Shown piece after piece: positions 7,871-54,182 of a stretch of 54,182 nt of DNA. The stretch lies in IMG/VR virus record IMGVR_UViG_2585427735_000009, one strand, 5' to 3'. Source of the stretch: a virus. Taxonomy: Duplodnaviria > Heunggongvirae > Uroviricota > Caudoviricetes. Below the pieces are notes generated by a model. That model saw only the letters and a list, made by a program, of their open reading frames with translations. It did not search any database and was not told where the DNA came from. The position numbers and the translations under genes were made by a program. Numbering within the stretch: position 1 is the first letter of the stretch; every line of letters begins with the position of its first letter.

Positions 7871-8350
7871 TCAATCTGATCCCGGCACTGCATCTGGTCG
7901 CCCCCGTTCAGCGACCAGCTTTCCTGCCATCGCGGAATCAAGCAGGCTTACCGCCGCCATCAGACGGGAGAGATCGCGCTCGCTGAGCTGTCCGATCTGA
8001 CGCGGAGACAATGGCCCCTCAATCTGGCCAACAGCGGCAATCTGACGGCGCAGCAGTGCAATGCCGCGCAGTGCCGGCGAGGCTATCAGAACCGGGCCGC
8101 CATTTCGGGTTTCCATAAGACGCTCGGCCTCGGTTTCCGCGTCAATGCTGTCTTTCGCCGTCAGTTCGCGGAAGGTGACGCGGTATTCACGGGATTCCCC
8201 GAACGGCAGACCGTCGAGCAGATCCACATAGCCGTTCGCCAGCTGTTCAGCCAGCCCGGCGGTGCGGGGATCGCCGTCTTCAAGTACATCCCGGATAGCC
8301 TCCATCACGGCCTCGTCAGAAACCGCCGTTTTTTTCTTACGTGTGGTCAT
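7871..8350 (-). CDS. Tail assembly protein (Mu gp41-like)
   Basis: 159-aa ORF between tail tube and tape measure genes. Confidence 0.5.
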   Translation of the reverse strand: MTTRKKKTAVSDEAVMEAIRDVLEDGDPRTAGLAEQLANGYVDLLDGLPFGESREYRVTFRELTAKDSIDAETEAERLMETRNGGPVLIASPALRGIALLRRQIAAVGQIEGPLSPRQIGQLSERDLSRLMAAVSLLDSAMAGKLVAERGRPDAVPGSD

Positions 8351-8364
8351 TGCATTTTTCCTGA

Positions 8365-8730
8365 TTACTGGACACGGGTACTGGTGGCGCTGGCGAACTT
8401 CGCGGAGATATCACCGCCACCGTCAAGCGAGGCCGGTTCACTGCTCCAGGCCTTCGTCATCATATGGACTTCACCGGTATCGGCCACGAACTCAATCGTG
8501 ACCGCAGTCCAGGTGTTGATTTCATCGGCAGCCGGTGAACCTTCTCCGCCAGCCGGAAATTTACAGTCCAGCGTCGCCTCACGGGGTTTCTCACGATAGC
8601 CATAGACTTTCGCGCCTTTCACCACTTCACGCTCAAAGCCGGACGGGGAGAACGTGGCTCCCTCAAGGGTGGCGTACTCCTGTCCGTTCACACGGATGGT
8701 GGCCGTGCCCTGATGCTGTTTTCCGCTCAT
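8365..8730 (-). CDS. Tail tube protein
   Basis: 121-aa ORF immediately downstream of sheath gene; translation consistent with contractile-tail tube family. Confidence 0.75.
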   Translation of the reverse strand: MSGKQHQGTATIRVNGQEYATLEGATFSPSGFEREVVKGAKVYGYREKPREATLDCKFPAGGEGSPAADEINTWTAVTIEFVADTGEVHMMTKAWSSEPASLDGGGDISAKFASATSTRVQ

Positions 8731-8738
8731 GCCTTACC

Positions 8739-10241
8739 TCACAAAATGAAACGGATCTGCGCGGCCATGAAGCGGAACTGGTTAACCAGATCCGGTGTAC
8801 ACATCACATCCAGACGGTTACGGTCTTTTGTGTTGCGCTCCACGAGCAGATTCTTTTTAAAGGTGTCCAGATTTTCGACCAGCCCGAGTTCCACCCATTC
8901 TTCCCCCAGTGCAATCAGCTGGAGCGTCATAATCTCCGGCGTCACGATATTCTGACCGGGCCGGACGGGAGTACCGTTATCGGCCAGTTTGTGGCGCGGG
9001 AAACGCTGCGTGATAAAGGTGCGCAGGGAATAACGCAGATATGACAGGGTGTAGATGGTTTCTACATCCAGATAGCTGGGATCGCTTTCGCCGTATGCAT
9101 TCTGACGGTACATCGTCACCTGACGTTCAATCTGCACCACATCAGCGGCCGCAACGGTCACCGTGGACATGCCGGTATAAAGCAGGCTGTTTCGCTCTTC
9201 CCGCGTCAGACGAGCCGGTGCTTCAGGTGCCATACGGGCAGGCAGCGCCAGTGTCTGTAATGGTCGGGCCGGATCCGTTGACAGGGAGGGCGCACAGACC
9301 GCACAAATGGAGGCCGCCCAGACATAATCCGGCTCTGGTGCTTTAGGAATAGAAGTGCAGGTAAACAGGAAGTCATTACGGGATTCACCAAAACTGGTTG
9401 CCGTACCGAAGGTGCCGGTATGCGCCATCCAGACCATACCGTCCGACATTTTTACCGGTCCCCAGCGTTTCAGCAGTTCATCCGCCAGAATTTTGAGATT
9501 TGCCGCATCCTTATAGGGCATGACGATGTAGTTGTACTGACGATTCCCCATCCCTGAGACGCTACGGGTGATATCGGGGTTTGTTGCCTTCTGTGTTGGC
9601 GCGACGAGCTCCAGCGTAAGACCGGCCGGTGTAGTTTCACCGTCATAATAGTTCACCCGTAAATCATGAGCTGAGCATTCACCGATAAAGCGGGCGTTAA
9701 CCCCCATGCTCCCTTTAAGTCCTTCAGCATTATCACCACTGACTTCAGCTGCGATAGCAGTGAATGGCGCATCAGTGTCAGCGTTAATGACCTTAGCCAG
9801 CTCTTCCACAAGCTCTTTACCTTTTTTCCCCTTACTGACGGGCAGGAGGTAACGGCGACCGCCGATGTAAACACTTAACACCCCGTCTGCCAATGCTGTT
9901 CCAATGATATTCATCACGCATGCCCTGGACTGACCTGTTCCAGCCCCCTGTGCAATGGCATATAACTCTGTGTCAGGGTTAATGGCGATAAATTCCTCTA
10001 CCATCAGTGCAATCATGGAACCTCGCCCCCAGAGTTCTCTTGCTTGTGAAGCTCGGGTAATACGTACTGGTACATCAAGCTGACCGCGCCCCTGAATGGT
10101 GGTGTCTTTCATTGCAGCCTGACCAAACAACAGTACCGCCTGACGCTGTGGTGGAGTGCCGGTCACGGCCATTGAATTATTGATTTCAATCTGTACCAGC
10201 GGAATGCGATTGTTATCGCCGATATAATCAAAGTTAATCAT
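8739..10241 (-). CDS. Tail sheath protein
   Basis: 500-aa ORF; size, position and translation (MINFDYIGDNNRIPLVQIEINN...) match contractile tail sheath proteins. Confidence 0.88.
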   Translation of the reverse strand: MINFDYIGDNNRIPLVQIEINNSMAVTGTPPQRQAVLLFGQAAMKDTTIQGRGQLDVPVRITRASQARELWGRGSMIALMVEEFIAINPDTELYAIAQGAGTGQSRACVMNIIGTALADGVLSVYIGGRRYLLPVSKGKKGKELVEELAKVINADTDAPFTAIAAEVSGDNAEGLKGSMGVNARFIGECSAHDLRVNYYDGETTPAGLTLELVAPTQKATNPDITRSVSGMGNRQYNYIVMPYKDAANLKILADELLKRWGPVKMSDGMVWMAHTGTFGTATSFGESRNDFLFTCTSIPKAPEPDYVWAASICAVCAPSLSTDPARPLQTLALPARMAPEAPARLTREERNSLLYTGMSTVTVAAADVVQIERQVTMYRQNAYGESDPSYLDVETIYTLSYLRYSLRTFITQRFPRHKLADNGTPVRPGQNIVTPEIMTLQLIALGEEWVELGLVENLDTFKKNLLVERNTKDRNRLDVMCTPDLVNQFRFMAAQIRFIL

Positions 10242-33010: not shown

Positions 33011-33101
33011 GACATCACCTGTTTTATTTCAGTATCTTACAGGTGATTTCACCTCCTTTCACTAAAACCCTCGTTGGTATCAAATGATTCACCTGGTTAC
33101 A
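33011..33101. repeat. Prophage terminal region with repeated TCACCT(G)/CAGGTGA motifs (putative transposase binding sites, attL-like end)
   Basis: TCACCTG at 33015, CAGGTGA at 33040, TCACCT at 33049, TCACCTGG at 33089; element ends ...GGTTACA at 33101 (TG on minus strand) immediately before dbpA sequence. Confidence 0.5.
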
Positions 33102-33609
33102 CGGTAGCGCCCGTGTACTGGTTGCTACTGATGTTGCTGCGCGTGGTCTGGATATTAAATCGCTTGAGCTGGTGGTGAACTTTGAGCTGGCGTGGGACCC
33201 TGAAGTTCATGTACATCGCATCGGTCGTACAGCTCGTGCAGGAAATAGCGGTCTGGCGATCAGTTTCTGTGCTCCGGAAGAAGCACAGCGGGCCAATATC
33301 ATTTCTGACATGTTGCAGATAAAACTTAACTGGCAAACGCCGCCAGCTAATAGTTCCATTGTGCCGCTGGAAGCAGAAATGGCAACGTTGTGTATCGATG
33401 GCGGGAAAAAAGCCAAAATGCGCCCGGGTGATGTATTAGGTGCACTGACAGGAGATATCGGGCTTAATGGCGCAGATATTGGCAAAATCGCCGTGCATCC
33501 GGCGCATGTCTATGTCGCGGTCCGTCAGGCTGTTGCTCATAAAGCATGGAAACAGTTACAGGGCGGGAAGATTAAAGGAAAAACGTGCCGGGTGCGGTTA
33601 TTAAAATAA
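33102..33609 (+). pseudogene. dbpA: 3' fragment of ATP-dependent RNA helicase gene dbpA, truncated by prophage insertion
   Basis: In-frame translation from 33103: [47 protein letters not shown]... (DEAD-box motifs V and VI) to stop at 33609; no N-terminal helicase core upstream, phage DNA instead. Confidence 0.85.
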
Positions 33610-45282: not shown

Positions 45283-46008
45283 ATGGAGACCGTTTTTGAC
45301 GCACTGAAAGCAATGGGAAAAGCCTCTTCCCAGGAAGTGGCAGCACGTCTGGGAATGACCCGGGATGAGGCGATTAACGAGCTGTGGAAACTGAAGCGTC
45401 GTGGGGAAGCTGATAACAAGGGCCCGATGTGGTGGTTGACTCAAACCGACGAAAACGCATCTGTAGCACAGGCTTCTAAAGTGACAGCGCAAATGCTGAT
45501 CGAGGCGATTGAACAGCATGGCCCTAAAGCGGCTGATGAACTTGCACTGATATTCAGAATTACTTCCCGCAGGGTGAACTCATCGCTGGCTATGGCCATC
45601 AGCAAAGGTCGTCTGATTCGCGTAAATCAGAACGGTAAATTTCGTTACTGCCTGCCGGACGGTAATTTACCAGCAGAGCCGAAAGTTGTATCGGTAGTGA
45701 AAACACCTGGTAAAGGCTTTCCTCAGCCAGCCGGTGTTGCGTTACCAGTACAGGAAGCGGCAACACAGGAAGAAATTAAAACAGATACTGTGGGGGACAT
45801 TGTGCAGTCACTACCATCGTTCACTGAAACGCGAGCCAATGACCTGATTATACCATCGCTGCAAATGGCAAACCGCGAACTGCGCCGGGCGAAAAGTTAT
45901 GTCCAGAAGTGGGAGCGAGTCTGCGCCGCGCTGCGTGAGCTGAACAAGCACCAGGATATTGTCCGTCAGATTGTCGATTCCTCCAGTCGTATTGTGTCGG
46001 AAAAGTGA
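45283..46008 (+). CDS. Hypothetical winged-helix protein (YdaW position)
   Basis: ATG at 45283 with GGGAGGAAA RBS (METVFDALKAMGKASSQEVAARLGMTRDEAINELWKLKRRG...). Confidence 0.45.
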   Translation: METVFDALKAMGKASSQEVAARLGMTRDEAINELWKLKRRGEADNKGPMWWLTQTDENASVAQASKVTAQMLIEAIEQHGPKAADELALIFRITSRRVNSSLAMAISKGRLIRVNQNGKFRYCLPDGNLPAEPKVVSVVKTPGKGFPQPAGVALPVQEAATQEEIKTDTVGDIVQSLPSFTETRANDLIIPSLQMANRELRRAKSYVQKWERVCAALRELNKHQDIVRQIVDSSSRIVSEK

Positions 46009-46024
46009 TTCCTGGGGAGGGCTT

Positions 46025-46447
46025 ATGGCAAAAGTATTTACACAGGAAGAGCGAGAAAAAATTAAAGGGCAGATTGTTGATCTTGTACGCCAGAGCGGGC
46101 GAGAGACGTTACGACAACTGGAAGCTAAAACGGGGGCGACAAGATATCTGATAAGCGCTCTTGCTAGGGAGTTGGTTGCGAATGGTGATGTATACAACTC
46201 TGGCTATGGGTTATTTCCGTCTGAGCAGGCACGTCAAGACTGGCAAAACGCCCGCAAAAAACTATCGAGGGCAAAGGTGAAGAAACCAGTTGTGGTTGAT
46301 CTGGACCTTATTTGGTCATTACCAGACGGAGAAATACGTCGCTACGACAGGCGTCTGAACATAATTTGCCGTGAGTGCCGGAAGAGTGAAGTTATGCAGC
46401 GTGTATTAGCATTCTATCAGGGAAATGTTCGGTATTTATTGAAGTGA
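46025..46447 (+). CDS. Hypothetical protein with N-terminal wHTH-like region
   Basis: ATG at 46025 with GGGGAGGG RBS (MAKVFTQEEREKIKGQIVDLVRQSGRETLRQLEAKTGATRYL...). Confidence 0.45.
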   Translation: MAKVFTQEEREKIKGQIVDLVRQSGRETLRQLEAKTGATRYLISALARELVANGDVYNSGYGLFPSEQARQDWQNARKKLSRAKVKKPVVVDLDLIWSLPDGEIRRYDRRLNIICRECRKSEVMQRVLAFYQGNVRYLLK

Positions 46448-46656
46448 CGAGATTAAAGACCATTAATTCATATGTGAATTGACAGTTTCATGGCACAGGA
46501 TACGGCTAGCGTGGTTGTCTGTTTTGTGCCAGGGGCGGGCCTAACTAAGTTCACACAACATTGATTATTGAAGATTAGGTCAGAAATAAATAGGTTATTT
46601 TGATAATTTAGTTACGTTAGAATGCCGCAGTGTACAAAGTAAAAATGAGGAATAAT

Positions 46657-48018
46657 ATGACTCGGAGTGAAATAAACGTCTGGGATAAGAGACGAGGCAC
46701 CAATAGTCATCGTGTGGAGGAGATTCGATCTGAAGCTCAGCACGACCTTTCTCGACTGATTCACTCGTCTGCTTTCAGACGATTGCAATCCAAAACACAG
46801 GTTCTTGGTCTGGGTGAAAGTGATTTCTACCGCACACGACTGACTCATTCTATGGAAGTCGCACAAATCGGTTCAGGTCTTCTTGCTAAGCTGAAAATAA
46901 AATATAAAGGTAAAGAGCAAGAGCAATTTTTACCAGATAACGATCTTATGCAGGCAGTATGTCTCGCACATGATATTGGACATCCTCCATTTGGTCACGG
47001 CGGTGAGGTAGCTCTTAACTACTGTATGCAGGATTACGGTGGTTTTGAAGGAAACGGTCAGACACTTCGCATTCTCTCGAAACTAGATAAGTATACCGTT
47101 GAACACGGACTCGATCCTACACGCAGACTTCTGCTAGGCATACTGAAATATCCGGTTAAATACTCGGATCTAGTGGTTACAAAAGACAGAATCCCGGCCA
47201 CTATCGGATCGCCGAACTGGCTCTTTAAGTCATCTGATTTTAAACCTCCAAAATGCTATCTAGATTCAGAATGCGATGTTGTAGAATTTGCTCTTTCACC
47301 ATTTACTGAACAGGATCGGAGGCTTTTTACTTCCGTTGAAGATGGTCAAACTAAATCCGATCATAAAAAAGCTTCTTATAAAGCTCTCGATACAACCATC
47401 ATGGATCTTGCCGATGAAATTTCGTATTCGCTGCACGATTTGGAGGATGCTATTTCTCTCGGAATGGTGACACGAGAAATGTGGATGGAGCATTTCAGTG
47501 AATATGAAACCCTATTTACTAACTGCCATGGAGAAACATTTTCCGCAACATGTGAATCTGTCGCGGATAGCCTTTTTGGTGAAAGTTACAAGAGAAAAGA
47601 GTGCATCGGGATGCTGGTTCACCTGATGATTACAAGCGTTGAGCTTATTACAAAGAATCCAGCATTCGAATGTGGCATGCTCAAATATAATGCGGTCCTT
47701 CCGGAAGCGGTCGAAGCACTACGGTTTAAAATTTTCAAACTGGTCAAAAATAAAGTAATTAAGCATGAAAATGTACAGCAGCTTGAATTCAAGGGACAAA
47801 AGTTGATTGTTGAGCTTTTCGGTGTGCTGGCTAACGATCCGTGTCGGTTTCTACCGGCATCAACGAGGGAAATTTACGAGCGGCAGACTAGCTTGGACGA
47901 GAAGGCTGGTATGCGAGTCATTTGCGACTATGTTTCAGGGATGACTGATGACTATGCAACAAAGCTTTATGAGAAGATCCTTATTCCACGCAAAGGGTCT
48001 ATTTTTGACCATCTCTAA
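46657..48018 (+). CDS. dGTP triphosphohydrolase (Dgt-family HD-domain dGTPase); candidate anti-phage dNTP-depletion enzyme
   Basis: ATG at 46657 with GAGGA RBS; motifs AFRRLQSKTQV, RTRLTHSMEVAQIG, AHDIGHPPFGHGGE, LADEISYSLHDLEDA match Dgt HD-domain signatures as recalled; AT-rich relative to Rac core. Confidence 0.82.
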   Translation: MTRSEINVWDKRRGTNSHRVEEIRSEAQHDLSRLIHSSAFRRLQSKTQVLGLGESDFYRTRLTHSMEVAQIGSGLLAKLKIKYKGKEQEQFLPDNDLMQAVCLAHDIGHPPFGHGGEVALNYCMQDYGGFEGNGQTLRILSKLDKYTVEHGLDPTRRLLLGILKYPVKYSDLVVTKDRIPATIGSPNWLFKSSDFKPPKCYLDSECDVVEFALSPFTEQDRRLFTSVEDGQTKSDHKKASYKALDTTIMDLADEISYSLHDLEDAISLGMVTREMWMEHFSEYETLFTNCHGETFSATCESVADSLFGESYKRKECIGMLVHLMITSVELITKNPAFECGMLKYNAVLPEAVEALRFKIFKLVKNKVIKHENVQQLEFKGQKLIVELFGVLANDPCRFLPASTREIYERQTSLDEKAGMRVICDYVSGMTDDYATKLYEKILIPRKGSIFDHL

Positions 48019-48079
48019 TGCGGCAAGAATGATGCTCTGAGTTCAATTGACCTATAAACATTAACCAAGGCATCTACCA

Positions 48080-48099
48080 GGGGGATATCAAATCCCCCC
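48080..48099 (+). terminator. Hairpin GGGGGAT-ATCAA-ATCCCCC, candidate terminator after dGTPase gene
   Basis: 7-bp G/C-rich stem 62 nt after the dGTPase stop, followed by a weakly T-rich stretch (ATTCTGAATTTGTT). Confidence 0.4.
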
Positions 48100-48428
48100 A
48101 TTCTGAATTTGTTCGTGCAGAATCGGTGAACGTTCTCATCTGAGCGTTAAACGCCAATAATCGTTGATCTACATTGATCATTAATACACCTTAATACCAT
48201 TAGCGTCTTACTCCGTTATGAGAACAAACGCGAACTGACCTGCCCCCAGTATTAGTGACCTTCAGCTACGGTAACTTGTCCGCTTCGTGCCAGAAGCGGA
48301 CATCCATAGAGAAATAAGCGATCAGTTCTTAAATTTGTTGTGATTTTTTGATTTTTTTGTATTCGCAAAGGGATTTGTGTTGGTTGTATAATTACCTAAT
48401 ATTCATACAGTTGAATGGGAGATGTGGG

Positions 48429-49322
48429 ATGAAGTTCTCGTACAGACATGGTTTTGATCCTGAGTATAATAAAAAGCCGATACGGGAAGATGCTCCAGAG
48501 TGGCTTCGCTCTTTATTTTTTGTAACTGTCCTCGATAATTTTTTGTACATTGATGGTGATAGCCGCATTACGAATGATGAGAACAAGCCGTTGGGTATTA
48601 AGGCTTTGATCGAGCGACTTTGCGCAGAGAATGGTCAAGAAACAGATCATGAGGATTTCGATTCATGGTACTGCTATGATGCTTTGAAAGCGCGTTTGCA
48701 ACATATGCGTTGGTTTCAATTTTATGATGCTGTTGAGATTATCGGAGATCTATTAAGAAAAAGAGATGTAGAAAGAGGCCATACTTGGGGTAAGAAGGCA
48801 TTAGAAGACATTACTTTTACATCATATCGTCAGAAATTGAACGAGTTATTCGCATCTCGAAATATTGACTGGAAAATGAATTCTGCTGGTAGGTTAGAAA
48901 CACCACTACCAAATGAATTAGAACAAAAAATCGATGAAACTAACAACTTATTGCAAGACCAGTTTGAACCTGCAAGGAGGCACTATGTGAAAGCCCGGGC
49001 TTTTGCATTAGGTGCGCATAAGGATCCAGAAAATTCCATAAAAGAATCAATAAGTGCAATAGAAAGCATGTGTCGGACTTATTATCCTTCAGCCTCAACC
49101 TTGGGCGATGTATTAAAACTGATGAGAAAAGAAAACACTATCTCACCTATGCTTTTAACGGTGATAGAGAAATTTTACGCTTATACAAATGCAGAGCCAG
49201 CAGTAAGACATGGTAGCAACAAGGTTTCTTCTGTCTTGGAATACGATGCTGAATTCGTGTTGCATATATCAGCAGCATTTATTAGAACAATAATACAAAG
49301 AAAAGCTGTTTTGGATAACTAA
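48429..49322 (+). CDS. Hypothetical protein, possible Abi/HEPN-like abortive-infection candidate
   Basis: ATG at 48429 (MKFSYRHGFDPEYNKK...), about 297 aa, AT-rich; possible R-x6-H motif (RAFALGAH) in C-terminal half; upstream extended -10 TGTATAAT near 48386. Confidence 0.5.
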   Translation: MKFSYRHGFDPEYNKKPIREDAPEWLRSLFFVTVLDNFLYIDGDSRITNDENKPLGIKALIERLCAENGQETDHEDFDSWYCYDALKARLQHMRWFQFYDAVEIIGDLLRKRDVERGHTWGKKALEDITFTSYRQKLNELFASRNIDWKMNSAGRLETPLPNELEQKIDETNNLLQDQFEPARRHYVKARAFALGAHKDPENSIKESISAIESMCRTYYPSASTLGDVLKLMRKENTISPMLLTVIEKFYAYTNAEPAVRHGSNKVSSVLEYDAEFVLHISAAFIRTIIQRKAVLDN

Positions 49323-49562
49323 GTCAGACTTACAGCCAACTGACTGTCTCTTATTATTCAAAACATAATAATGTTAGGTCCGCTTATCGCACATCAGGGA
49401 CAACCATACTCAAATCTCCCACATTGCAGGAGATTTGAGTGTGAACACGTCACCGTGGAACAAAGACTGTATCATCGGTCAAAAAAGACCTGGTTATCTA
49501 GCAAAAACTTTTAACATACCAACAAACTTAATTTATTTAAATGCTATTAATACAACTAATGT

Positions 49563-50789
49563 TTAAAATATATATTTTATATCAACCCAATTTTTAGCAT
49601 TATTGTCAACTAAAGTAACGCTATGTCCATGACTTGAATTTATAGCATCGATTACTGATTGTGATGGGTGTCCATGTGAATGACCATCCGACTGAGCTAT
49701 AAACAAAACATTATCAAAATCCGCAATTATTTTTTGATTGAAATTTAATTCCGAACCATGATGAGGTAATGTCATCACCCTTACCGTTTTAATCACTTTT
49801 GAATAGAATTCAGCCCATTTATTATAATACAATGATGTATTAAGCTTTGAGTCACCTGTTAATAAAACAGATCTAATTCCTTTATCTCTATCAAAGAGAA
49901 AATGTCGCTCAACCCGACTATTTCTAAAACTAAACCACTCACGAGAAGGCTCATTAACAATTTTCATCTCAGCTTCTTGATTATTAATAATCAAGAGATT
50001 GATTGATATTACATTATGATCGCCAGCAAGTTTTAAATAACACTCGCGTAATTTCTTTCTTTCCCCCGTGCTAGTTAATATTTTAAGCATTTTTTTCTTA
50101 CTTAACTCAGTAAAACCATTTTCTATTAACTGCTGACTGAAAATTTCAATTTTCTTACGTGAACGGGGCGGTATCCAAGAAATAAATGACATTAGTGTAT
50201 CAGTTTTGTTTTCCCCAATCCTTTTAACCAACCAACGGTTACATTCAACATCTCCTTTGGAGTCAGATATTTTCATTGGTAAGCTTACAGCGCTATCCTT
50301 AATGTTTTCACTATTAAATATAGGAGGGTCAAAATTATCATCAATATCACAGGGGTAAAGCAAAGATATATCTACCTCAGGCAACCTTGATTTTATCCAT
50401 TTGACAGGATCAATGAGAAATTCCATAAAAAGACCTGACGTAGAATTAGAGCATAGCTCCGATGCAATTAAGTAATAGCTATCATGGATATCTAGGTATG
50501 GTAATACAACCTTGCGTATTTTGTTATCTACAAGCTGACATAAATGGTCAAATCCATTTATATGGTCTGAATCCAAATGAGAGATGTATACCACATCAAT
50601 ATATTTCTCATCAATATTAAAGAGAGATTTAGCCACATCCATCTCCCTACGCAACGCATTTAATTGGTCACTTCCGCAGTCATACACATAACTGTAAAGC
50701 AAACTACCATCCCTTCCCCTCAGTCCGCCTAAACTAAATCCACCCTGGCCAACGGGAAACAATCTTTTATGAAATACTTCTCCGCTCAT
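49563..50789 (-). CDS. Standalone metallo-beta-lactamase-fold hydrolase (ComEC-type motifs), candidate nuclease
   Basis: 408 aa, ATG at 50789 with AAGGA RBS; MBL motifs HLDSDH (HxHxDH), LTGDSKL and LPHHGS; very AT-rich. Confidence 0.7.
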   Translation of the reverse strand: MSGEVFHKRLFPVGQGGFSLGGLRGRDGSLLYSYVYDCGSDQLNALRREMDVAKSLFNIDEKYIDVVYISHLDSDHINGFDHLCQLVDNKIRKVVLPYLDIHDSYYLIASELCSNSTSGLFMEFLIDPVKWIKSRLPEVDISLLYPCDIDDNFDPPIFNSENIKDSAVSLPMKISDSKGDVECNRWLVKRIGENKTDTLMSFISWIPPRSRKKIEIFSQQLIENGFTELSKKKMLKILTSTGERKKLRECYLKLAGDHNVISINLLIINNQEAEMKIVNEPSREWFSFRNSRVERHFLFDRDKGIRSVLLTGDSKLNTSLYYNKWAEFYSKVIKTVRVMTLPHHGSELNFNQKIIADFDNVLFIAQSDGHSHGHPSQSVIDAINSSHGHSVTLVDNNAKNWVDIKYIF

Positions 50790-51503
50790 ATATCCTTCTT
50801 ACACCCTAACGTGATCATAAAATTGTCTTAAAGTTAAGTTTAAAGCTAAAAAGTCACAGCTCATTCCAACTCGTGAGCAATAGGAATGTATATTCAATCA
50901 GTTAGAGGATCAACCCGATTTTCTCTAATGAGATTTCGCAACGCAGTACGAACAGCAGCTACTTCTGCCATCTCATTAACAACCACACTGGACTACAATC
51001 CCCTAAGTTCTACAGACTGTAACCATATCCTCTTCACAGAAATAATCTGATTAATGCTGAAGGTCATCTTTCTCGACGCGAATGTATGACATAACAACCT
51101 CAGTTAATTATCTTTCGATAGAAAAATACCTTCACAAAAGGTTTAAGCAACCCATCACAAGACAACACGCTAAGCTTGCCTTGTAAGCGTCCTGCTTAAC
51201 CGAACAGTTCGCTTTCAGAGGATCTCCGGAGAACAGCTCCGATGCCTTATAAGGCCAATGCTCGCTCCTCGCTCACTGCGGACCTAAGGTTTGGTCAGCT
51301 TGTTCGCACTCTGCCAAAAGCGGGAGTTACTCCCATTCGGTGTTAATCAATGTAGAGCAGATCAATCAACGACAAAGAAAATGAGAGGCATATCACTACT
51401 CATATGAAAATTATTGTAGTAAAGTGAGCCGTAAGTTCATCATTTATAAATCATATAGCATATATGTTATATCAATTTTAATTTAAATGGCAGAATAATT
51501 ACC

Positions 51504-52208
51504 ATGGAAAAAATTAAAACTCCTTGTCCATATTGTAAAGGTGAAAAAAATTGCCACATAATAGGCCATAAAAAAAGAGAATGGAGTGAGGATGATGGGG
51601 GCAACTATTTTTGGGCTGAAAGTGAATACAAATTATTAGAGTGTATGGGGTGCGACGGAATATTTACATATATTAAATCCCGTCACAGTGAAGATTACGA
51701 CATTGAAAGAGATGAGTCAGGCTATGATTGTATGGTATATAACTATCATATATCAACATATCCCACTCAAGAGCAAGAAGAGATTAGACCAACTTGGTTT
51801 GGTGAGACATTAAACAAAGATCGTCAGCTGTATGTAATAATGAACGAAATGTACATCGCATTTCAAAATAAATCATTCATTTTAGCGGCGATTGGACTTA
51901 GAACTATTTTTGACAGAACAGTTGAGGTTCTAAATATTCATCCAGGATATACATTAGGCCAGAAGGTTGACATTCTTAAAGAGGAAGGTTTTATTGGGGA
52001 AACAGAAAGGAGCCAACTTAAAATTGTAACCGAAGCTGGCAACTCAGCTGCACACAGGACATGGGCACCGAACGAAACTGAATTTAAATCGCTTTTGGTA
52101 ATTATAGAAAATTTTGTAATGCGAACAATACTAAAAAATGAGGATATATTTAAGATTACAGAAAAATTACCTGCGAAATATCCAAGACCTCCCAAAAAGC
52201 AAGAATAA
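51504..52208 (+). CDS. Zinc-ribbon protein with DUF4145/HEPN-like C-terminal domain (candidate Abi-type effector)
   Basis: 234 aa; N-terminal CPYC-x-CH ... CMGCDG zinc ribbon; C-terminal AAIGLRTIFDR...GETERSQLKIVTEAGNSAAH resembling the DUF4145 GNxxxH signature as recalled; AT-rich. Confidence 0.55.
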   Translation: MEKIKTPCPYCKGEKNCHIIGHKKREWSEDDGGNYFWAESEYKLLECMGCDGIFTYIKSRHSEDYDIERDESGYDCMVYNYHISTYPTQEQEEIRPTWFGETLNKDRQLYVIMNEMYIAFQNKSFILAAIGLRTIFDRTVEVLNIHPGYTLGQKVDILKEEGFIGETERSQLKIVTEAGNSAAHRTWAPNETEFKSLLVIIENFVMRTILKNEDIFKITEKLPAKYPRPPKKQE

Positions 52209-52704
52209 TGTACGTAAGTGTAAATAGAGCTAAGAGATTATATATTGACTCTGGTTATCTCTATTAGCACATGCTTTTTGTAATGCCTTAACTGATTATT
52301 TAAACTCCTGTCAGCTTTTCGCTCAAAGCGGACTAAAGTGTTGGCTTGTGACTGACTTAGCGCATTTAAGGAAGTGGTGGTGGTGACGGGGTGTTGTGTC
52401 CCATTTCCACAGAATAAATCAGAGAAACTATAGCGGCTGTAATGGCAATCTATGGTCTTGCTATTGCTCTTATGGATCACCTTTCTGATTGATTTCATAT
52501 TGGCGAGGTAACGGGAGTTAAGTAGAATAGCTGCGGGTGCTTGAGGCTGTCTGCCTCGGGCATGAACACCAAAGGCAGATAGAGAAAAGCCCCAGTTAAC
52601 ATTACGCGTCCGGCAAGACGCTTAACATTAATCTGAGGCCACATCTATGCTTTGCATACGTAGATTAGCCTCTTACCGACCAAAAGGTCAAGGAGAAGCA
52701 GGCT

Positions 52705-52860
52705 ATGAAGCAGCAAAAGGCGATGTTAATCACCCTGATCGTCATCTGTTTAACCGTTATAGTGACGGTACTGGTAACGAGGAAAGACCTCTGCGAGGTA
52801 CGAATCCGAACCGACCAGACGGAGGTCGCTGTCTTCACAGCTTACGAACTTGGGGAGTAA
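52705..52860 (+). CDS. hokD: Hok-family membrane toxin (HokD/RelF-like)
   Basis: Hand translation MKQQKAMLITLIVICLTVIVTVLVTRKDLCEVRIRTDQTEVAVFTAYELGE (51 aa); below ORF-track cutoff. Confidence 0.8.
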   Translation: MKQQKAMLITLIVICLTVIVTVLVTRKDLCEVRIRTDQTEVAVFTAYELGE

Positions 52861-52882
52861 GAGGACCAGCGGGGAGAAATCC

Positions 52883-52905
52883 CATAAGCGCTAACTTAAG
52901 GGTTG
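52883..52905. repeat. IS186 terminal inverted repeat
   Basis: CATAAGCGCTAACTTAAGGGTTG, matching the IS186 terminal repeat as recalled, preceded by G-rich target-like sequence GGGGAGAAATCC. Confidence 0.6.
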
Positions 52906-53053
52906 AACCATCTGAAGAATGCGACGCCTCGGTGCCTCGTTAAGACGATGCCTCGCGTTCTTCAATTGCGTTTTGTAGGCTGTCAGGGATACTGTCCCAC
53001 GAATGGCCACCTGTAAGCTCCAGATGACCATTTTTGTTATTCTCCACAACGAG

Positions 53054-54166
53054 TTAGTTCTTCTTTTCGGATCCGGCACTTCTGGGGGGGAAATCCAGCG
53101 ATGGCTGGATTATGTCGTCAATTAAAAATGCGGCGAGTAGATTAGCAAATATCCACGCTTTCGCGAGTTCAGGTTCCTTTGCACGCAAAGCATCCAGGTG
53201 CAGCAAACTTTTGAGCCGCTTAAAAGCCAGTTCAATTTGCCATCGCAGACGGTAACAATCAGCCACTTGCTCTGCTGAATATTCATCTTCCGGTAATGAT
53301 GTTAGCAATAGCACATGGCCCGCTGCTTCCAGCGTTTCCGCCTGAACTACTCGTCCTTTTCGACGATTCTCGCTGAGCAGTCGGGTTTTACTGATTAATG
53401 CTTTTTCGGGAGGAAGTGATACGGCAATGAGACGTGCCGGAAAGGGAGCTCCGGCTTTTTTATTACCTGAATTGCCTATCATTACAGTGGTTTCACCGTT
53501 CTTACCGCAATCCAGCCCGCGCAGAAAACCCATCATGTCAAAGCGCATTCCTTCTGCAGTTAACCAGCGCAATCCTCGCCAGTGAACCCGGACGATATAA
53601 TCAGCTTCTCCAAAAGCAAGTGAGCGGATACATTCGGGACGCGAACCGAATCCCCGGTCAGCAATGCGTATCTCGTCTGCCGTTTGCGCAAATCGGTCCA
53701 GCCGTTCAGCGTCTCTGCTGTCGGTTAGCTCAAAATCAGTGAACTGACAGGTATGAGGATCATATCCCATATGTAGTCGCCATTCAGCGCTGCCGCCCCC
53801 GGGCGCACTGATTGCTGTTCCATCGACAAGACGCAATCTCTTTCCGCTTGTACAACCCGTAACTGCGGCGCGTACAGCAAGTGTTTGTGCGGCAAGTATG
53901 CCAAACCAGTCGGCGGCATTCCGCAGCCGCTTCAGGAGAGCCACGTCAGATAATGTTGCAACGTCATGGAGCTGAGCCCATGCAGTGACTTCACGTAATG
54001 ACATCCCCCCGGGGCCGTAAGCCAGCCCCAGACGTAGCAGAGTTGCAGCATCACGAATTTCGCGGCGGCGGGTTAGAGCCCCGGCATTACGTGCCGAAGT
54101 ATCCAGTTCTTCGGGCTTACCAATATGGGCCAGAATTGCTGACCAGTTATCGTGAGAGTAATTCAT
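53054..54166 (-). CDS. IS186 transposase (IS4 family, DDE)
   Basis: ATG at 54166 (MNYSHDNWSAILAHIGKPEELDTSARNAG...), 370 aa. Confidence 0.85.
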   Translation of the reverse strand: MNYSHDNWSAILAHIGKPEELDTSARNAGALTRRREIRDAATLLRLGLAYGPGGMSLREVTAWAQLHDVATLSDVALLKRLRNAADWFGILAAQTLAVRAAVTGCTSGKRLRLVDGTAISAPGGGSAEWRLHMGYDPHTCQFTDFELTDSRDAERLDRFAQTADEIRIADRGFGSRPECIRSLAFGEADYIVRVHWRGLRWLTAEGMRFDMMGFLRGLDCGKNGETTVMIGNSGNKKAGAPFPARLIAVSLPPEKALISKTRLLSENRRKGRVVQAETLEAAGHVLLLTSLPEDEYSAEQVADCYRLRWQIELAFKRLKSLLHLDALRAKEPELAKAWIFANLLAAFLIDDIIQPSLDFPPRSAGSEKKN

Positions 54167-54182
54167 CGGCACGTTAAATCAT

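Follow-up and report, generated by a model that had tools for sequence, protein, structure and literature searches.

Whether a Dgt-family gene carried by a prophage serves in defense or in housekeeping is the question raised by a 54,182-nucleotide stretch of Escherichia coli DNA (IMG/VR virus record IMGVR_UViG_2585427735_000009), which is contig JOQC01000029.1 of GCA_000713905.1 and is referred to here, at its full length, as the window. An initial annotation had placed the gene among the deoxyguanosine triphosphate (dGTP) triphosphohydrolases (dGTPases) and favored the first of these roles. The analysis described below indicates that it very probably encodes a stand-alone anti-phage dGTP triphosphohydrolase, belonging to the same family as the dGTPase of Shewanella putrefaciens CN-32 (Sp-dGTPase) and the E. 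coli enzyme Ec-dGTPase G177, and that it forms a single-gene cassette in a variable slot of a Rac-like prophage located at ttcA. The dGTPase family, the mechanism of dGTP depletion and the association with mobile elements are already published, and this exact protein is already labelled 'anti-phage deoxyguanosine triphosphatase' in NCBI. A literature search on lambdoid or prophage dGTPases returned reviews only.

Family placement and catalytic residues

In the program-made list of open reading frames (ORFs), the gene appears as a GTG-started frame of 462 codons (46630-48018, + strand), but an in-frame ATG at 46657 yields a protein of 453 residues. In other genomes that contain the identical gene, RefSeq starts it at the equivalent ATG, and WP_021554374.1, an 'anti-phage deoxyguanosine triphosphatase', has the same coordinates in those identical loci. 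The ORF proposed initially is thus real, and Pfam detects an HD domain followed by HD_assoc in its product, the wider home of which is the HD-domain, SAMHD1-like superfamily.

Two NCBIfam hidden Markov models (HMMs) bear directly on the choice between defense and housekeeping. The anti-phage deoxyguanosine triphosphatase model NF041026 (cutoff 400 bits) matches the prophage protein with 559.7 bits (E = 4.7e-168) across profile positions 1-424 of 425, whereas the housekeeping Dgt equivalog model NF003429 (cutoff 405 bits) gives only 147.2 bits. The K-12 Dgt protein, used as a control, has the opposite pattern, with 895.1 bits for NF003429 and 194.7 bits for NF041026. Two further controls score as the prophage protein does: the validated Sp-dGTPase (155.8 bits with NF003429, 575.5 bits with NF041026) and a G177-type E. 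coli protein (146.5 and 558.4 bits, respectively). The PADLOC dGTPase model PDLC02374 is also matched (477.7 bits, 8.5e-144). Grouping with housekeeping Dgt orthologues, which the initial annotation had named as the outcome that would count against a defensive role, was therefore not found, and the preference for a defense-type enzyme is borne out.

Comparison with individual dGTPases, likewise proposed at the outset, places the protein closest, among solved structures, to PDB 9P8W (508.8 bits, query residues 10-453), which is Sp-dGTPase according to the depositors' paper (Yamaguchi et al.). Identity to Sp-dGTPase is 258/442, or 58%. For their defense-associated clade, Tal et al. required 45% or more identity to Sp-dGTPase with an overlap of 90% or more, and the prophage protein falls within these limits. 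In the alignment, it is 97% identical to a second copy found in E. coli 1303 (see below), 67% identical to the G177-type protein WP_048216953.1 over the full length and 67% identical to a copy from a P1-like plasmid, as opposed to 33% for K-12 Dgt (26% by BLASTP, with 27% gaps). Only an N-terminal stretch of 133 residues was available for Ec-dGTPase G177 itself, and identity over the 131 residues that align is 76%.

The three motifs quoted in the initial annotation, HSMEV, AHDIGHPPFGHGGE and DEISYSLHDLED, are all present exactly where they had been placed. HSMEV is invariant in an alignment with Sp-dGTPase, the G177-type protein, the P1-like copy and Dgt, as are the individual residues H64, H105, D106, H114 and E117, and the last metal-binding aspartate corresponds to D253. 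D106 of the prophage dGTPase is the counterpart of D101 in Sp-dGTPase. The roles given to the HD and HE residues here are taken from descriptions of CloA and Sp-dGTPase (Yamaguchi et al., Tal et al.).

Resemblance to Sp-dGTPase is colinear over the full length and, like the prophage dGTPase as proposed here, Sp-dGTPase is a single-gene system. The remaining 42% of residues differ, with small insertions and deletions where the middle and C-terminal parts are variable, and the genomic context, here a prophage, differs as well. Ec-dGTPase G177 comes from the same species and family, and protects in plaque assays (Tal et al.); however, it belongs to another allele class, with approximately 67% nucleotide identity, and is found in a chromosomal defense island (yjcB-ssb) next to yjcB rather than in a Rac-like prophage. 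E. coli Dgt (b0160; PDB 4X9E, 6OIY) shares the HD-domain dGTP triphosphohydrolase fold and the metal-binding and catalytic residues, but it is a 505-residue protein with an insertion of about 41 residues after the HD/HE motif and further C-terminal insertions, none of which are present in the prophage dGTPase. It is also a core gene product, encoded between mtn and degP, with an NCBIfam equivalog of its own.

More distant defense dGTPases were considered and rejected as identities for the protein. CloA of the Clover system (CloA/CloB; Yamaguchi et al. 2025 preprint) is a defense dGTPase with the same catalytic motifs, but it is octameric, needs activation by dTTP and is held back by the product of the nucleotidyltransferase CloB. 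Its structures (9p8s to 9p8v) match with about 76-83 bits and over the N-terminal part only, compared to 508.8 bits for Sp-dGTPase, and no nucleotidyltransferase domain, as a CloB-type partner would have, was found in the neighboring DUF977, AbiJ_NTD4 and MBL-fold proteins. Vdg, an octameric anti-phage dGTPase from Vibrio (PDB 9VWA, 402 residues), has the HD core but a different oligomeric architecture, and is a distant match of 149.7 bits in two stretches. Human SAMHD1 was compared by strategy only: it too is an HD triphosphohydrolase that depletes deoxynucleoside triphosphates (dNTPs) to block viral DNA synthesis, but it is a eukaryotic, SAM-domain-containing tetramer under allosteric regulation, with all four dNTPs as substrates.

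Distribution and prophage context

The gene is accessory. Of 5426 complete E. coli genomes, 17 contain it at a threshold of at least 95% nucleotide identity, in every case as a chromosomal copy, whereas 5425 contain the housekeeping dgt gene. The 17 copies form two groups, one of 11 copies with 99.9% nucleotide identity and one of 6 copies with 97.5-97.6%. All of the loci inspected in the first group lie in a Rac-like prophage. The copy inspected in the second group, from E. coli 1303, is instead part of an integrative island, where a type I restriction-modification system and DarTG are its neighbors; four other records from this group have the same match pattern as E. coli 1303, along with a neighboring tyrosine recombinase.

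Alignment of the flanks delimits the unit that the two contexts have in common. The sequences are unrelated before approximately 46526 and after approximately 48237, and between these points the gene is accompanied by 131 nt on its 5' side and a near-identical stretch of about 219 nt on its 3' side. The dGTPase has therefore moved as a 1.7-kb single-gene cassette (46526-48237) between a prophage and a restriction-modification/DarTG island. This cassette takes in the ribosome-binding site, which was noted initially and is unchanged as GAGGA in E. coli 1303, and a downstream hairpin (Table 1). It leaves out the AbiJ-like gene that follows, an extent that, judged by these boundaries, is consistent with single-gene autonomy.

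Table 1. Positions in the window of the dGTPase gene, its motifs and the signals of its cassette
Feature	Position	Strand	Basis
Predicted anti-phage dGTPase coding sequence, HD + HD_assoc, 453 aa	46657..48018	+	ORF, Pfam, NCBIfam, PADLOC, RefSeq
Shine-Dalgarno sequence GAGGA, 5 nt 5' of ATG	46647..46651	+	sequence read directly
HSMEV motif, aa 64-68; H64 as first metal-binding histidine	46846..46860	+	exact match, alignment
AHDIGHPPFGHGGE, aa 104-117; HD motif (H105, D106) and HE catalytic dyad (H114, E117)	46966..47007	+	exact match, alignment
DEISYSLHDLED, aa 253-264; D253 aligned with last metal-binding aspartate	47413..47448	+	exact match, alignment
5' flank travelling with the gene, 131 nt, including -10-like TAGAAT (46618-46623)	46526..46656	+	alignment with E. 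coli 1303
Hairpin GGGGGAT-ATCAA-ATCCCCC, 7 bp, G+C-rich, 62 nt past stop	48080..48098	+	fold
3' flank travelling with the gene; end of common cassette	48019..48237	+	alignment with E. coli 1303

The initial annotation had also described the gene as part of a prophage cargo island, and both parts of that description hold. From approximately 33101 rightwards, the window contains the 3' part of dbpA, then ttcA and then a Rac-like lambdoid prophage. The left part of this prophage runs intR, xisR, ralR, recT, recE, kilR, sieB, the repressor and Cro-like regulators and ydaT, and continues with a DnaC/IstB-like replication ATPase (ydaV is named in the Rac-like gene set), DUF1627, DUF977 and the dGTPase. 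On the 3' side of the dGTPase are genes for an AbiJ_NTD4/PDC-S32 protein, an MBL-fold protein (on the opposite strand), a DUF4145 protein and hok, followed in this lineage by IS421. What comes next in relatives are the genes for late regulation, lysis and structure, and where IS421 is missing the DUF1367, DUF1364 and DUF1133 late-regulatory genes follow. The dGTPase thus occupies a slot with the replication genes on one side and the hok/late-regulatory region on the other. G+C content is 39% in 46448-53050 and 46% in the adjoining prophage backbone. The slot between DUF977/lygF and hok is a variable cargo slot, because in phage Rac-SA53 the interval between lygF/DUF977 and mok/hok is filled by entirely different genes. 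In the window it holds stacked defense-like cargo (the dGTPase, the AbiJ-like protein, the MBL-fold protein and the DUF4145 protein), and this is part of the modest, descriptive value of the locus.

A more sensitive search extends the family in E. coli to 91 genomes and 92 places, 64 of which are on plasmids. The plasmid copies have approximately 66% nucleotide identity to the prophage gene, and the plasmids among the matches listed are about 71-115 kb in size. One that was inspected, NZ_CP173566.1 (96 kb), is a P1-like phage-plasmid with darB, pro, lyz and ssb, in which a dGTPase with approximately 66% nucleotide and 67% protein identity (7914-9269) adjoins ssb and lyz. Since 64 of the 92 places are plasmid-borne, plasmids, including at least one P1-like phage-plasmid, look like the commonest carriers of the family in this species. 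Deposited phage genomes, in contrast, rarely contain the gene: a megablast search of them with the 5-kb region gave matches confined to the DUF977/lygF flank, and tblastn detected a close homologue in only one of 50,697 records, an induced P1-like phage (68% identity). At the protein level, the cluster defined by at least 90% identity spans E. coli, Klebsiella, Salmonella, Proteus/Providencia, Raoultella, Enterobacter and Citrobacter.

Predicted activity and alternative explanations

Given 58% identity to Sp-dGTPase and the preservation of all of the catalytic residues, hydrolysis of dGTP to deoxyguanosine is the most likely function of the prophage protein. By homology to 9P8W, the protein would probably assemble as a hexamer, in which H64, H105/D106 and D253 would serve as ligands of the catalytic metal and H114/E117 would hydrolyze dGTP to deoxyguanosine and triphosphate. 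If expressed in the lysogen, the enzyme would hold dGTP below the level that a superinfecting lytic phage needs for its burst of DNA synthesis, and both the lysogen and its resident prophage would be protected.

The mechanism has a precedent in work on the related enzyme. Tal et al. reported that, in T7-infected cells expressing Sp-dGTPase, dGTP becomes undetectable while deoxyguanosine rises, that the HD mutation D101A abolishes defense and that 53% of the Sp-dGTPase clade adjoins known defense systems. They also obtained T7 escape mutations in genes 5.7, 5.5 and 0.7, which points to a link between Sp-dGTPase and phage interference with the host RNA polymerase, and a comparable trigger may apply to the prophage enzyme. 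Sp-dGTPase on its own hydrolyzes dGTP in vitro and is hexameric (Yamaguchi et al.).

Several observations weigh against a stand-alone defensive role. A promoter scan of 45900-51500, in which the total number of sites did not exceed the shuffled expectation, detected nothing sigma-70-like that scored 9/12 or better within the 209-nt gap upstream of the dGTPase; the -10-like TAGAAT, which is inside the conserved leader, was found by eye and has no convincing -35 element. A downstream hairpin terminator had been claimed in the initial annotation. The 7-bp hairpin itself exists, and is kept in E. coli 1303 with one extra G, but its tail is CATTCTGAATTTG, with no run of T residues; the terminator scan neither called it nor found a canonical terminator 3' of the dGTPase, and any role as a terminator would be weak or non-canonical at most. 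With no promoter detected on one side and no canonical terminator on the other, expression from the repressed prophage is an assumption. In addition, the closest cloned relative, from Enterobacter sp. ODB01 (92% identity, 133 residues shown), is not among the four constructs that were protective out of six cloned dGTPases (Ec G177, Ms, Pl and Sp; Tal et al. preprint, Table S5). The ODB01 clone is the sole cloned representative of the 453-residue subclade.

The ODB01 result can probably be accounted for. The construct begins at the equivalent of M98 (window 46948-47346) and lacks the N-terminal 97 residues, including H64, and the sequence identifies it as an N-terminally truncated gene call. 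This truncation probably explains its absence from the protective constructs. Because H64 and the other N-terminal residues are missing, the apparent negative is uninformative on the full-length protein, and the published negative for the 453-residue subclade can be traced to a truncated construct.

Among the alternatives, there is a slight chance that the trigger, phage range or regulation of the Enterobacteriaceae-wide clade of 453-residue proteins is not that of Sp-dGTPase. Such a difference might take the form that the conserved 131-nt leader drives expression in the lysogen, so that superinfecting lytic phages are starved while the resident lambdoid prophage is spared on induction. Alternatively, the dGTPase might be coupled in function to the AbiJ-like or MBL-fold genes next to it.

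A related reading, in which the dGTPase and one or both of these neighbors make up a multi-gene system with the dGTPase as its effector, regulated by a partner as CloA is by CloB, is quite unlikely. The neighbors do look defense-related, one through its PDC-S32/AbiJ_NTD4 matches and the other as an MBL-fold protein with partial matches to the LmuA, Avs1a and DRT MBL models, and they co-occur with the dGTPase in 10 complete genomes and in the three assembly contigs that extend far enough to include them. However, the cassette shared with E. coli 1303 stops at about 48237, short of the AbiJ-like gene, and the neighbors in that strain are different; it is these two observations that make coupling improbable. 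A gap of 410 nt separates the dGTPase from the AbiJ-like gene, the MBL-fold gene is on the opposite strand, none of the neighbors has a detectable nucleotidyltransferase domain and the CloA structures reach only about 83 bits, compared to 508.8 bits for the stand-alone Sp-dGTPase, which works alone (Tal et al., Yamaguchi et al.).

A role in the lytic cycle of the prophage itself, in which the enzyme would remodel the nucleotide pool in the manner of DatZ rather than defend the lysogen, is highly improbable. The gene is phage-borne, and DatZ-type HD triphosphohydrolases serve nucleotide-pool remodelling in some phages with modified bases. Against this, the Rac-like prophage has no base-modification genes, the same cassette is found in a non-phage restriction-modification/DarTG island, the clade to which the protein belongs is the one validated for defense and deposited phage genomes contain hardly any close homologues (the single record mentioned above). 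Decay into a non-functional relic of a cryptic prophage, as might be imagined from the IS421 that disrupts the prophage in the window and from relatives with frameshifted intR, sieB or terminase genes, is scarcely credible for a full-length ORF that has intact catalytic residues, an HMM score on par with those of validated members and a nucleotide sequence conserved at 99.9% in 11 genomes and at 97.6% in a second context. Finally, the idea that the gene is a housekeeping Dgt orthologue, or a redundant paralogue for dNTP-pool homeostasis with no role in defense, has in its favor membership of a common superfamily (TIGR01353 dGTP_triPase, 345 bits) and a chemistry that is probably shared, but it is effectively refuted by the family placement, including the failed equivalog model, the 26-33% identity and the missing Dgt-specific insertions, and by the distribution, with a separate dgt in nearly every genome and all inspected copies of the prophage-type gene in mobile DNA.

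Neighboring genes and other features of the window

Just beyond the conserved cassette there is a second, intergenic hairpin, with a stem of 10 bp formed by GTCCGCTTC and GAAGCGGAC (48277-48302, -18.4 kcal/mol) and, again, no run of T residues. The gene directly 3' of the cassette (48429-49322, +) encodes a protein of 297 residues that is hypothetical in RefSeq. It matches the PADLOC candidate PDC-S32 (1.6e-33) and, marginally, Pfam AbiJ_NTD4 (34.4, with a threshold of 34), and is probably an AbiJ-like abortive-infection protein. It is followed on the opposite strand by the gene for the MBL-fold metallo-hydrolase (49563-50789, -; 408 residues), the C-terminal part of which gives partial PADLOC matches to LmuA (2.7e-12), DRT RTasMBL, Avs1a and PDC-M48B; these matches suggest a possible, stand-alone defense effector. 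Further to the right are the DUF4145 gene (51504-52208, +) and a hok/gef toxin gene (52705-52860, +). PADLOC gave no match for the DUF4145 protein, for hok or for a 262-residue ORF in the replication region. The IS4-family transposase of IS421 (53054-54172, -) reaches to the end of the window.

The left part of the window (1-33101) is a Mu-like transposable prophage, with tail, head, Mor, Gam, transposase and repressor genes. It ends with ...GGTTACA at 33101, inside dbpA, and only the 3' part of dbpA follows (33102-33609), indicating that the DbpA helicase gene has been split by the Mu-like insertion. Since the Mu-like prophage ends in dbpA and the Rac-like prophage begins past ttcA, two prophages are found side by side around ttcA.

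The G177-type dGTPase gene also has distinctive neighbors. In NZ_LR536430.1 (3540-9279), the copy in the yjcB island adjoins a cluster that encodes a PfkB kinase and a QueC-like 7-cyano-7-deazaguanine synthase, together with a dehydrogenase, an 8-oxoguanine glycosylase and a Dam-like methylase; this cluster may represent a DNA-modification or defense module.

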